Positions 782 through 63,668 of a stretch of 64,000 nucleotides of DNA are shown piece after piece. Origin of the DNA: Eledone cirrhosa (lineage: Eukaryota); NCBI GenBank assembly GCA_964016885.1, contig OZ024742.1, positions 42,966,001 through 43,030,000 of the forward strand, given 5' to 3'. The first letter of the stretch is position 1; the number at the start of each line of letters is the position of its first letter. A program made the translations under genes and the position numbers. The notes beneath the pieces are model-generated. The model did no database searches. It saw only the letters and a list, made by a program, of their open reading frames with translations, and had not been told where the DNA came from.

Positions 782-1033
782 CACGATAAATTAACGGAGC
801 CATAGGCCCTCGCCATTCCCTGTAAATAATGTGCTCAAAGGAGAAGTCCTGAGCTCTTTAAAATACAATATGTTGAAAAGGTAACACACCAGAGAGAGAT
901 ATAGAGGGCGCTATCAATAAAACAGGGAAAAAACCACCAGTGTATGGAATCTATAACCTATGAAAGTTATTTTATTGATAGCGCACTGTATACCTCTCTC
1001 TGGTGTGTTACCTTTTCAACATATTGTATTTTA
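782..1033. mobile_element. Short asymmetric hairpin insert (PLE-end type)
   Basis: Inverted arms 859-922 and 970-1033, unpaired tail 782-858, TA flanks. Confidence 0.6.
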
Positions 1034-1555
1034 TATATATACACACACACACACACACACACACACACACACACACACACACACACACACACACACACAC
1101 ATATATATATATATATATATATATATATATATATATATATATGTGTGTGTGTGTATATATATATGTATATATATATATGTATATATATAGATATATATGT
1201 ATGTATATATATATATATATATATATATATATATATATATATATATATATGTATATATATGTGTATATATATATGTATATATATATGTATATATATATGT
1301 ATATATATGTATATATATATATATGTATATATATATGTATATATATTTATATATATATATATATATATGTATATATATATATATGTATATATATGTATAT
1401 ATATGTATATATATGTATATATGTATATATATATGTATATATACATATATATATATATATATATATATATATGTATATATGTATATATATATATATGTAT
1501 ATATATATGTATATATATATATATATATATATATATATATATATATATATATATA
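1034..1555. repeat. (CA)n-(TA)n/(TATG) compound microsatellite
   Basis: Seen directly. Confidence 0.98.
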
Positions 1556-1984
1556 CAATATTAAATAAATGGAAACTATATTTATAAAACCATATTTATT
1601 TCATTATATATATTTCGGGGATATCATATTAACAATATGCTATGCCTTCCTCAGACAAAATACAATATAAACAGTTTTATAGATAAATAGATTCGACATA
1701 CCGTTATAACACCGACTTGCATTTCAAATGCAAGTCGGTGTTATAACGGTATGTCGAATCTATTTATCTATAAAACTGTTTATATTGTATTTTGTCTGAG
1801 GAAGGCATAGCATATTGTTAATATGATATCCCCGAAATATATATAATGAAATAAATATGGTTTTATAAATATAGTTTCCATTTATTTAATATTGTAAATA
1901 TACTCCAAATATTTGTCGAGTGCCTTTATATCAGTTATAAATATTTACTAGTTGTAACCCAACAATTTTAAATATAACTTTCCA
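1556..1984 (+). mobile_element. Hairpin PLE-end insert, family H1 (also at 18916 and 50676)
   Basis: About 169-bp palindromic arms centred at 1725; tail 1895-1984; contains an HHR. Confidence 0.75.
1788..1853 (+). ncRNA. Hammerhead ribozyme (family H1)
   Basis: TATTTTGT-CTGAGGA-long imperfect stem II-GAAA-TATATA-TA-ATGAAATA. Confidence 0.65.
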
Positions 1985-59800: not shown

Positions 59801-61634
59801 ATACATATATATATATATATATACATATATATAAAATATATATATACATATATATATATATATATATACATATATATATATACATTATGAAGAGGGAAGA
59901 AACATTTAGATATAATTAGTAATAAAATGTATCATACCTAAACTTCTCTCTTCATAATGTATTTTTTAACTCTGATACTGGTTCAGTCTGGTTCAACCGG
60001 ATTGGTCTGTCCCAGTCATTCATTGAGCAACATCGGTGAGGTTGGCACTCTTAACTCACTGTTGGGTGTGGATGCATTCATGTATATGTGTGTGTCCGCA
60101 TGTATCTGTGTGTTTCTAAATATATTATATATATATATATATACATATATATACATATATATATATATATATATACATATATATATATATACATATATAT
60201 ATATATATATACATATATATATATATACATACATATATATATATATATACATATATATATATATATACATATATATATATATATATATATACATATATAT
60301 ATATATACATATATATATATATATATACATATACATATATATATATATATACATATATATATATATACATATACATATATATATATATATACATATATAT
60401 ATATATACATATATATATATATATATATACATATATATATATGTATATACATATATATATATATATATACATATATATATATATATATACATATATATAT
60501 ATATATATACATATATATATACATATATATATATATATATATATATATATATATATATATGTATACATATATATATATATATATATATATACATATATAT
60601 ATATACATATATATATATACATATATATATATACATATATATATATATATATATATATATATATATATATATATATATATATATATATATAACGAAGGAA
60701 ATGTGGTAAGGAACCAGGTGGACCATAACGCACCAAAGTACTCAATACTTGGGGTAGTAGAGTGGGTAATAGGAACCAGTAAGACCCCATATATATATAT
60801 TATATATATATGTATATATATATGTATATATATATGTATATATATATATATGTATATATATATATATATATATGTATATATATATACATATATATATATA
60901 TATACATATATATATATACATATATACATATATATATATATATACATATATATATATATACATATATACATATATATATATATACATATATATATACATA
61001 TATATATACATATATATACATATATATATATACATATATATACATATATATATATATACATATATATATATATATATATATACATATATATATATATATA
61101 TACATATATATATATATATATATATATATATATATATATATATATATATATATATATATATATATACATATATATATATATACATATATATATATACATA
61201 TATACATATATATATATATATATATATATATATATATATACATATATATATATACATATATATATATACATATATATATATATATATACATATATATATA
61301 TATATATATATATATATACATATATATATATACATATATATATATATATACATATATATATACATATATATATATACATATATATAATACATATATATAT
61401 ATATATATATAGATATATATATACAAATATATATATATATATATACATATATATATATATATATATACATATATATATATATATATATACATATATACAT
61501 ATATATATACTTATATATACATATATATATACATATATATATATATATATATATACATATATATATATATATATATACATATATATACATATATACATAT
61601 ATATATATATATATATGTATATATATATATACAT
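56865..61634. repeat. (TA)n/(TACA) field with duplicated inserts
   Basis: 58071-58315 matches 59881-60126 (hairpin plus tail); family N on minus at 59111-59208 and 60691-60788. Confidence 0.9.
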
Positions 61635-63668
61635 AAGTATTGAAGTTTCCGTTGAAAATTGAAAAAGTCATAGGAGTGAAGAGTGCTCTATGTAAGTACC
61701 AGAGCAAAATTTAATGTATAATAAACAATACAATATAATTACCTCATTACCAGAGGTTTCCTGAATAAGACGAATACGAAAAATGTCCTCATTCGTTCAT
61801 CGGACAAGGTAATTTAAAACATAGTGAAATATTTGAAAAGTCTCTTCAAGAAAGGCAAGAGTTTAACGGGCAAAAAATATATAAATAAAACTAATGCAAG
61901 AGATATATAAAAAAATAAGGAAAAATAGTTAGGGTATGTGTATATGTATGTATATACACTCACAAATGTACATATGTGTGTATGTACAAATGCATGTGTA
62001 TGGTGAAAATGTGTGCGCAAGTACATATATGAGGGCAAGTATATTTGTGTATATGTGACCACAAATACGTATGTAATACACAAGAAATTTTCACCAGTTG
62101 CCCACACATGAAATCACACTTGCTTTCCAGCTCATATAAACTTAACTCATTTTCAGATACTTATCCTCCATAAACTCTTATTCTTCACTTTCCTTAAATT
62201 ATCCTCTTTACAGACTTCTCTTTCTGATTTACTTTCATTTTTAACTTTATTTTTAATTTTATTTTTATTTTTATTTTTACTTCACATCCACCAGTAACCC
62301 CACCCCCTACTTTCCGATTCACTAACTTAATATCTTCACATTCCCCATTTTACTCCCCCATTTTCTTTCACTACCTGATACCAAATGTCACTTGCGTTTT
62401 CCACTCCAGATATATTCTGTTGTTTCGCAGCCGATTTTATATTTGTACTCATTTATTCATACGGCTGGTTTATAATCTGCATCTATGCGTGTGAGTGTGC
62501 ATATGTGTGTATACGTTCTGTATATGTATACGAACGACTCCGTATGTGTGCGTGCGTACGTATATATATGTGTGTGTATGTGTGTTTTTATATCTATGTT
62601 TTTTTATATCTATGTTTTTTACATACTTATTTATACGTGTGTGTGTATGCGGGTGAATGTATGTGTATGTGTATGTATATGTGTGTATATGTATACGTAT
62701 ATATGGGTGTGTATGTATATATGTATATATATATATATAGTCGCGTACGTGCGTGTGATTAGATATACATGTGGCGATATATATATATATACGTGCCTCG
62801 TGTGTATGTATGTACGCATGCATGCGCTTTTGTCTGTACGTATTTGTATGTATAAATATTTATATGGAGAAGAAGTTTATGAAACGGAAATGCGGGTATA
62901 AAGAATTTATTAGGTAACAATTGTTTCTATAGTGTATGGGTTACCTATACCTCGCTATTTGAATAACTACTTAGTAACATTGGAATACAAATTTACTAAA
63001 TATTTATATATATATATGTGTGTGTACGTGCGTACCTATGTTTGTTTTTGTTTTTTTCTAGTGTTAATCGATTACTTTCTCTTTGATTTAATAAATTTTT
63101 TCATTCTCATATATTGTTTTCTTTTTATACATATATAGAGAATGACACTTCTTTTTACTATTACACTCCCTTCCCTCTTTATCTTCCGCATATAAGTGAC
63201 CGCGCGTGTGTGTGTGTTTATACGCGTGCTTTCATACTCGTATGTGTATTTAATACCTGTATCTGGATGCGTGTTAACTATATTATCTTACAATTTCTTT
63301 TTCAACTCATATTATATACGTATTTGTGGTCACATATGCACAAATATACTTGCCCTCATATATGTACTTACGCACACATTTTCACCATATACATGTATTT
63401 GTACATACGCACATATGTACATTTGTGAGTGTATATACATACATATACACATGCCCTAACTATATTTCCTTATTTTTTTATATATCTCTTGCATTACTTT
63501 TATTTATATATTTTTTGCCCGTTAAACTCTTGCCTTTCTTGAAGAGACTTTTTAAATATTTCACTATGTTTTAAATTGCCTTGTCCGATGAACGAATGAG
63601 GACGTTTTTCGTATTCGTCTTATTCGAGAAACCTCTGGTAATGAGGTAATTATATTGTATTGTTTATT
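61635..63668. mobile_element. Non-coding PLE 3' region, inverted pair
   Basis: Arms 61712-62075 and 63312-63668; tail 61635-61711; HHR in both arms. Confidence 0.75.
63579..63646 (+). ncRNA. Hammerhead variant (CCGATGA core)
   Basis: CCTTGT-CCGATGA-A CGAATGAGGACG..CGTCTTATTCG A-GAAA-CCTCTGG-TA-ATGAGG. Confidence 0.7.

Follow-up and report, generated by a model that had tools for sequence, protein, structure and literature searches.

Paired, inverted and single-tailed inserts of Penelope-like elements in (TA)n tracts of Eledone cirrhosa: likely products of programmed twin priming

Penelope-like elements (PLEs) of Hydra and Neptune type account for 19 TA-flanked inserts, 95 to 6112 bp long, in the window, i.e., the 64-kb stretch of the Eledone cirrhosa genome analysed here by masked self-BLAST and end-by-end checks (Table 1). 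Each insert joins an arm with a tail (T) to an arm without one (L), and both 3' ends face outward. Judged from their sequences, these inserts are likely made by programmed twin priming followed by end-joining. In this model, the GIY-YIG nuclease of the element would cleave a (TA)n tract on both strands; the two DNA ends thus released would each prime a separate cDNA on the element RNA, at one or the other of two fixed TA sites. The two 5'-truncated cDNAs would then be joined head to head, mostly through blunt, 1-nt or small-insertion joints. At least 15 inverted pairs of 90 bp to 6 kb had been reported in the first-pass annotation of this DNA; the present catalogue bears this out, and the pattern is found genome-wide. 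A strict detector accepts 40 of 295 TA-bounded segments as against 0 of 879 random end pairings, this chance control being drawn from 664 kb of contiguous genome (stretch C3, around and including the window, plus stretch C2). Five of the six tail coordinates given earlier are right within 2-5 nt (36, 60, 45, 66, and 82 nt, including the shared TA); the sixth, 31414-31437, is a cut-short tail, which four other copies extend by 16 nt.

Table 1. Positions in the window of the paired inserts and of three lone ends
Position	Strand	Feature	Details
782..1033		T/L insert, tail left	Hairpin 833-854 (-); L end displaced outward by 8-9 nt relative to other copies
1556..1983		Hydra-type hairpin insert of family B; right-hand tail of 89 nt	RNA hairpin 1902-1921 (+)
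2182..7388		Family D (Neptune-like RT + GIY-YIG)	Longer T arm left, L arm right, junction 5023-5024, 36-nt tail
7410..7790		T/L insert with right-hand tail of 73 nt	RNA hairpin 7727-7748
7819..7997		Older-subfamily insert of family A (Hydra); right-hand tail of 79 nt	RNA hairpin 7927-7950
8055..12266		Family C PLE	Longer T arm left, L arm 11311-12266, 60-nt tail
12393..12811		Non-overlapping arms: T arm (left) cut at tail start, L arm (right)	RNA hairpin 12450-12474 (-)
17026..18635		Non-overlapping arms: ~1.5-kb L arm (left), T arm entirely within tail (18578-18635)	
18914..19225		Family B-related insert, tail left	Flank exception: right side a short TATA only
29163..29407		T/L insert with right-hand tail of 66 nt	RNA hairpin variant 29348-29367
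29552..29753		Family A insert with right-hand tail of 80 nt	First RNA hairpin 29682-29705
29876..31437		PLE (GIY-YIG)	Longer L arm left; T arm skips an internal stretch and has a curtailed tail of 24 nt
31608..31868		T/L insert, tail right, including short TA run	
33691..33802		Family A mini insert	T arm end 18 nt upstream of L site, at predicted ribozyme cut
38788..44899		PLE RT + GIY-YIG, arms 97% identical	Tail left; longer L arm right, reaching ORF start
49925..50019		Smallest insert, 95 bp, family C	Order: tail + short T arm, short L arm
50677..51381		Family B insert, left-hand tail; one hairpin unit duplicated internally	RNA hairpin 50742-50761 (-)
51836..52023		T/L insert, tail right	RNA hairpin 51962-51980
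61632..63674		T/L insert, 82-nt tail left	RNA hairpin 61685-61705 (-)
25523..29115	+	Neptune-like PLE, T-type end, no inverted partner	Hammerhead-like core at 28965
34703..35119	-	Lone tail-less arm, same family as 25523-29115	
59112..59208	-	Lone family A T arm, end at predicted hammerhead cut (-17)	Duplicate at 60692-60788

Pfam RVT_1 and GIY-YIG matches, several of which score below the Pfam gathering threshold, are found on the window ORFs 3505-5046, 26257-28581, 39617-41602, 42141-44120, and the split 8475-11343. Most short inserts are devoid of an ORF, and six are linked to ORF-bearing families. The family A ORF, 719 residues long in locus L067, yields a protein with RLRWR, SDKTG, and CNCPDRSICP motifs and without CCHH. 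This fits the definition of the Hydra clade, which comprises an RWK-like motif, DKT, a CxCX5C linker, the absence of CCHH, a short ORF, and a (TA)n target (Craig 2021, PMC8557442). The start of the family B ORF, translated by eye, reads RIRWR, and family B would likewise belong to that clade. The translated motifs of families C and D, and of the families of inserts 25523 and 38788, fit Neptune/Nematis (Cys linker plus CCHH), without separating these two clades. A partial tandem (pLTR) with an inverted 5'-truncated copy and a single-end tail is found in L067 and in triple matches of families B, C, and D. A 426-nt gap in the downstream copy of L067 was considered as an intron and rejected, since it is private to this locus.

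Both end points of the inserts are TA sites of the template, matching the (TA)n flank by 2-7 nt, and the L and T sites lie 36-170 nt apart, depending on the family. That the second arm stops at a fixed internal TA, as previously claimed, was confirmed by a flank match of at least 2 nt at the L site in 27 of 35 clusters (13% expected). The T site is TA/AT in read-through copies of families A, B, C, and D, as well as of five further clusters. When tabulated, the end points are not random: 205 of 235 family A ends fall exactly at 0 or +80. Two other template TATs, at +24 and +44, are never used, and a TA match as the sole site selector was hence rejected. In family D, extra (TC)n is present at eight of ten L ends and at none of 20 occurrences of that site within T arms.

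Hydra-type families have, 4-17 nt downstream of each site, a separate copy of a predicted bulged hairpin (RCTC-stem-UH-GAGY). The full motif occurs beyond the L site in 13 of 37 tails (0.025 in shuffles), a count in which several motif clusters are related to one another, and even the lower stem is missing from 18 of 35 L tails. Beyond the T site, all seven read-through copies of motif-bearing clusters display the lower stem plus bulge, and four the full motif, which is absent from three non-Hydra families in the same comparison. Families C and D and the 25523 family are without the hairpin, which is thus not universal. It is also present in the Hydra consensi of Craig S7, with two copies upstream of the ATG in Hydra-1_Ajap. 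In an unrelated metagenomic family, T-ended copies stop at ATATAT immediately ahead of hairpin 2.

The pairing of the two arms is strict. Among the fetched loci, short family A pairs comprise 128 L/T, one T/T (at C1:4720372), and no L/L (n=129), and L/T pairing holds for 11/11 inserts of family B, 9/9 of family C (one further being ambiguous), and 7/7 of family D. Four apparent L/L inserts were dismissed: three are offset calls inside T arms of catalogued T/L inserts, and the last, read directly, is L/T. Genome-wide, exact-pattern counts give 39,468 matches to the family A arm core, 17,677 of them running on into the tail and 17,330 fused to (TA)5, which corresponds to roughly 17,000-21,000 inserts, mostly short DNA hairpins. 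The two arms of a family A insert nearly always carry the same subfamily bases, with 2 of 92 evaluable pairs looking discordant. It might be envisaged that both ends are primed at T, a second cut at the inner TA then trimming off one of the tails, or that independent RNPs of the same subfamily act and symmetric products are lost, for instance as perfect palindromes, which are unstable. Such instability, the T/T insert, and the two seemingly discordant pairs lend this some credit, yet we consider it unlikely. Arms are near-perfect palindromes regardless of the tail, making a selective loss of L/L and T/T hard to explain; trimming would need base-exact removal in 128 of 129 cases; and a hairpin present in duplicate speaks for two start sites by design.

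Arm lengths also bear on the mode of priming. In 105 family A pairs, the longer arm is L in 51 and T in 36, and 18 are equal; the arms overlap in 98 pairs, and seven T arms have no sequence in common with the L arm. Another scenario holds that priming occurs once, at T, that the cDNA folds back, and that an endonuclease (EN) cut at the inner TA resolves the hairpin; it combines a tail formed by EN-mediated resolution (Craig 2021, PMC8557442) with self-priming (Arkhipova 2013, PMC3846280). It would account for the subfamily bases shared by the arms, for the many junctions that are near-perfect palindromes, and for an inner end at a TA, a plausible EN target. A folded-back copy must, however, lie within the T cDNA, which does not agree with the pairs having a longer L arm, nor with T arms that never reach L sequence, as in window inserts 12393-12811 and 17026-18635. 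The hairpin behind the L site and the L-only (TC)n stutter are also left unexplained. Because either arm may be longer and some arms do not overlap, simple fold-back is contradicted as a general route; improbable overall, it might still account for some of the inserts with a longer T arm, but for no others.

Two further claims concerned the junctions, namely that arms are truncated independently and often join at 2-6 nt microhomologies. The first stands in part: 44 of 46 junctions are distinct (rho 0.29, p 0.06), indicating separate truncation and ruling out a master hairpin copied as a unit, but both arms pile up at one wall. The second is overstated, microhomology being a minority outcome: in 105 clean family A junctions, at least 2 nt are shared in 32 (a count inflated by a permissive yardstick), 42 have 0-1 nt, and 31 carry insertions of 1-12 nt. 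In another tally, microhomology of at least 2 nt is present in 13 of 31 non-insertion junctions (12% under the null).

The wall at which short family A arms of both kinds end is located 62 nt upstream (-62), at a site that is initiator-like in the DNA. A transcription-start wall with a promoter-like motif, sought in families B and C, was not established there. A second family A wall, at the predicted ribozyme cut, is suggested at most: of 33 T arms 5-40 nt long, eight stop at 16-18, among them one duplicate and some that microhomology favours. The predicted three-way junction of family A, with a core UUGAGAA / GAAA / GUC that we take to be a U3:A8 variant of the hammerhead, folds no better than shuffles (z 0.15). 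Rfam returned no hammerhead on the window and L067, only microsatellite and generic hairpin noise. Canonical-looking hammerhead cores are predicted in family B and at 677 and 28965. The TA nature of the outer site, the one-of-each pairing, the hairpin at each site, and the family A 5' wall had escaped the first-pass annotation.

Assembly chimeras arising from fold-back reads, or two unrelated adjacent insertions, are a very improbable source of these structures. Hairpins beside long (TA)n are hard to sequence, and the sole locus-specific junction compared with short-read data, at 5023, was not spanned there, the repeat contigs being collapsed. Against this, the ends are base-exact and family-specific, the arms have diverged (96-99%), later insertions are nested within arms, and no TA tract lies between the heads. 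Furthermore, raw Illumina reads from another study contain identical ends, loose and followed by (TA)n at both sites, together with strand-change joints and the wall, as ends piled at -62.

Exceptions to the pairing are found. Seven PLE ends in the window are partnerless, and the T/L pattern does not extend to RT fragments of non-PLE origin in the same TA arrays. Lone ends represent 16 of 358 family A ends in the fetched loci. Bidirectional priming had been proposed as the default integration mode; this is retained for family A, with 129 paired inserts versus 16 lone ends, a count that leaves out 59 ends without a call and 25 long ends.

In programmed twin priming, each hairpin would dock one RT of a pair on a single RNA, hence the one-of-each pairing; a single RNA and two RNAs of the same subfamily would fit the data alike. 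The trailing (T) RT would displace the L cDNA because, to our knowledge, the PLE RT has no RNase H. The family A sites are close to the predicted mRNA start (-62), so that most cDNAs would terminate by run-off at the end of the RNA, yielding ~190-bp hairpins. A more speculative extension, which we regard as possible at best, is that Hydra-clade elements carry a two-station priming cassette at the mRNA 5' end. A pair of RTs would be docked by its two bulged hairpins, each RT being primed by a different end of the cut microsatellite, and synthesis of both cDNAs would stop by run-off at the transcription start, giving strong-stop products; only those jumping via a ribozyme-delimited 45-nt terminal repeat would copy the whole element. 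One cycle would yield pseudo-LTRs, partial tandems, inverted arms, and tails, and stutter at initiation would lengthen the flanking microsatellites in a telomerase-like manner.

EN+ PLE inserts have been described as partial tandems with an inverted 5'-truncated copy head to head and a tail at one end only, with a (TA)n preference in the Hydra and Naiad clades (Craig 2021, PMC8557442; Schostak 2008, PMC2377424; Arkhipova 2013, PMC3846280). The tails of canonical EN+ PLEs reach 30-40 nt, versus 36-170 nt here. The relevant passages of these three papers explain the tail by EN resolution or the inversion by self-priming, and do not state strict one-of-each pairing, a TA match at both ends, a hairpin pair, or a 5' wall. 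The mechanism of tandem and inverted insertion, named as open by Craig 2021 (PMC8557442), is only partly solved by Frangieh 2024 (PMC11167929). There, in vitro TPRT by Poseidon PAc cuts and extends both strands, a dimer is predicted, and on both strands the RT starts at two internal sites, which lie just within the pLTR-ORF junction and bound the tail. These starts are not homologous to the cut DNA and neither site shows a strand preference, so that strict coupling is not predicted by that assay; here, in contrast, each site shares 2-7 nt with the (TA)n primer and is used once per insert. In its main text, that paper offers no explanation for the inverted arm. Priming in both directions from two fixed sites on the RNA, as earlier proposed for this DNA, is the best-supported model, ahead of fold-back and endonuclease trimming, but its core is already in Frangieh 2024. 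Insert architecture (Craig 2021, PMC8557442) and two RT start sites on both strands in vitro (Frangieh 2024, PMC11167929) are already published; strict pairing, TA at both ends, paired hairpins, unequal or non-overlapping arms, and the family A wall were not found in the literature searched.

PLEs are the closest relatives of the telomerase RT, and the origin of their tandem and inverted inserts matters. Tens of thousands of copies in one genome make it possible to separate published ideas, favouring coupled two-ended priming over fold-back and nuclease trimming. The paired hairpin is a small, conserved, and mutable handle, by which the twin-priming model is testable in the existing assay, and a signature for locating PLE ends and non-autonomous copies.

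Beyond PLEs, two systems offer a comparison. In the minus-strand strong-stop of retroviruses and LTR elements, priming occurs near the RNA 5' end and is followed by run-off at a fixed point and transfer. Family A would likewise have a 45-nt terminal redundancy, from the predicted start (-62) to the predicted ribozyme cut (-17), whereas PLE primers are chromosomal ends, two at once, and strand transfer is only proposed. In the twin priming of L1, reportedly described by Ostertag and Kazazian, both target ends are said to prime cDNA on one RNA, the cDNAs being joined head to head, as a minority accident with a random internal second site. The non-overlapping inserts look exactly like L1 products; the inserts as a whole fall outside the L1 form, as neither site varies, most pairs of arms repeat the same sequence, and this is the main outcome.

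In the 3.0-Gb source assembly the window occupies G000:C3:42966001-43030000, and TA arrays make up 12,922 of the 64,000 bases. Masked self-BLAST and end checks identify 19 inserts of 95-6112 bp, derived from Penelope-like retrotransposons (PLEs). Each is composed of two head-to-head arms with outward 3' ends, one tailed and ending at an outer site (T), the other tail-less and ending at an inner site (L), which confirms the paired architecture claimed in the first-pass annotation. The ORF-bearing inserts are RT and GIY-YIG elements. Seven PLE ends have no partner in the window, and the non-PLE RT fragments that share these TA arrays have one arm each. 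A strict detector accepts 40 of the 295 segments bounded by TA in 664 kb of contiguous genome that includes the window, against none of 879 random pairings. Run on everything fetched, it yields 136 inserts in 48 clusters, some related or artefactual; certain two-member clusters are non-independent because a 13.3-kb duplication beside the window copies inserts.

Coordinates of features in the window (W), in the source assembly (G000) and in a metagenome contig (L334)
Location	Feature	Observation
W 29552-29753	Family A	Hydra-type
W 2182-7388	Family D	Neptune/Nematis-like
W 12393-12811; 17026-18635	Inserts	T arm without sequence common to L
W 12851; 25523-29115; 32234; 34703; 45784-48263; 59112; 60692	PLE ends without partner	
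W 14035-16977; 50229-50653; 52088-54711; 56445-56869	Non-PLE RT (LINE-like) fragments	Single-armed, between (TA)n arrays; second and fourth 98% identical to each other
W 677-707	Hammerhead-like core CTGAAGA...GAAA	Lies in a segment that runs up to a TA array at 768, probably a further PLE's 3' end; partner absent from the window
W 58073-59208; 59883-60788	Local tandem duplication	Two short segments with (TA)n spacers, lone family A T arm included
W 22122-22664	Old palindrome, 70% identity	140-nt direct repeat; TA array at the 22664 end; possibly a decayed T/L insert
G000:C3:43058141-43076223	13.3-kb tandem duplication	Adjacent to the window; carries second copies of several PLE hairpin inserts
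G000:C3:42859840-42864627	Head-to-head array of 310-bp tandem units (locus L130)	About ten units in one direction, five in the other; kin of the W 31608-31868 family; non-autonomous multimer, inverted in the same way as the inserts
L334 1-2482	Hydra-type element	Start repeats end, as in a collapsed tandem or circle

Family A is a Hydra-clade PLE, of which a full copy (locus L067) encodes a 719-residue protein with RLRWR, DKT and CxCX5C motifs; CCHH is absent. Exact patterns count 39,468 arm cores; 17,677 extend into the tail, and (TA)5 is fused to 17,330. Loci picked by such patterns, most from the beginning of contig C1, provided 358 ends forming 129 short pairs: 128 L/T, one T/T and no L/L. 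The remaining ends are alone (16), on long arms (25) or unresolved (59), many of the latter visibly paired, with degenerate flanks or later insertions. Families B (Hydra-type; 2,558 cores), C (Neptune/Nematis-like; 29,400) and D (2,424), sampled at 30 loci each, gave L/T pairs in 11/11, 9/9 (plus one unclear) and 7/7 cases. A fifth pattern had three matches only and was left out.

In the L067 read-through copy, TAT occurs at both L and T. Among 235 family A ends adjoining (TA)4 or more, 87 fall at L, 118 at T, and none at two further TATs in the tail. TA or AT continues at T for 2-7 nt in read-through copies of families B, C, D and five other clusters, and is ambiguous in three more. At L, the flank matches over at least 2 nt in 27 of 35 clusters (13% expected), 13 symmetric, artefactual or duplicate clusters having been removed. 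The L and T sites of families C and D are short direct repeats of one another. At L198-L204 and L208, the (TA)n flanks show an identical periodic interruption on either side of one insert, implying that part of the array predates insertion or was copied across.

Downstream of L by 4-17 nt, 13 of 37 tails carry a hairpin motif (RCTC, variable stem, UH bulge, GAGY); shuffled tails yield 0.025 (maximum 1). At least the lower stem is found in 17 of 35 clusters, three groups among these 17 being related. Past T, at a distance of 6-9 nt, lower stem and bulge are present again in 7/7 read-through copies from motif-bearing clusters, four with the full motif, and in 0/3 non-Hydra families. By-eye reading of Craig's Hydra consensi finds two hairpin copies upstream of the ATG in Hydra-1_Ajap, one past the 3' TATA in Hydra-2_Amil and Hydra-2_Ajap, variants at both ends in Hydra-1_Crog, and a partial match only in Hydra-1_Amil and Hydra-1_Obim. 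Of eight metagenome loci, three belong to one family (37% identical) in which both hairpins precede the ATG; two T-ended copies end at ATATAT directly ahead of the second hairpin. The motif was not found at the expected place in the other five.

Short family A arms stop upstream at a "wall". They cluster 45-62 nt from L (position 0), with 26 stopping exactly at 62 and five at 63-70. All five reference copies have an A at -62, set in TCA(T/C)TT; a TATA-like run lies 25 nt before it, and a predicted hammerhead, with its predicted cut at -17, has this position in its loop. In raw Illumina reads (two runs from another study), depth is ~10,000 between -60 and T and a few hundred upstream. The ends at -62 number 488 and 572, and strand-change joints are seen along with loose ends carrying (TA)n at both L and T. 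These ends, joints and the wall argue against assembly chimeras; one locus-specific junction was not spanned by short reads. The wall may mark where the mRNA begins, in which case the 190-bp inserts would each consist of two strong-stop cDNAs; alternatively, a U-rich or structured stretch may cause a stall there. Families B and C show no clear counterpart. At L038, L092, L099 and L321 (family A), runs of 12-20 A or T occupy the central junction right at -62, which suggests slippage or untemplated addition at run-off.

An origin of the inverted arm by fold-back from the T cDNA would require L to lie inside T. Against this, the longer arm is L in 51 of the 105 clean pairs and T in 36, the other 18 having arms of equal length; seven T arms share no sequence with L, as in two window inserts. 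Family D L ends bear 2-29 additional TC units in 8/10 cases, and none occur at the same site within 20 T arms, a pattern that initiation at L with stutter would produce. Mismatch is 0.71 with the own arm versus 2.44 between inserts, indicating arms from one subfamily; 2/92 evaluable pairs appear discordant. Junctions are mostly individual (44/46). The 2-6 nt microhomology joins noted at first pass describe part of the 105 clean family A junctions: 32 have at least 2 nt, but 42 are blunt or 1 nt and 31 carry small insertions. Arm lengths, TC stutter, shared subfamily and individual, mixed junctions thus make coupled priming from the two target ends on a single RNA, followed by end-joining, the favoured and reasonably probable origin. 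We would infer an RT pair acting on the RNA and docked on the hairpins, and likewise the order of events.

A literature search, mostly outside subscription papers, returned no description of the hairpin motif, PLE twin priming or strong-stop transfer, and "hairpin" and "stem-loop" are absent from the main text of Craig 2021 (PMC8557442). As far as the available text of these papers goes, Craig 2021 depicts the inverted 5'-truncated copy and, at one end, a tail of 30-40 bp; it reports that Hydra and Naiad PLEs target (TA)n, and explains the tail by endonuclease resolution. Self-priming on antisense RNA is the proposal of Arkhipova 2013 (PMC3846280). Frangieh 2024 (PMC11167929) documents in vitro cutting and extension of both strands, with RT beginning internally at two sites that delimit the tail and lack homology to the cut DNA. 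Schostak 2008 (PMC2377424) maps the Penelope start site to an internal promoter without a TATA box. Neither the architecture nor the pair of sites, as covered there, is therefore new. The mechanism proposed here for this known architecture is sharper and testable, with the hairpin as a new conserved cis element.
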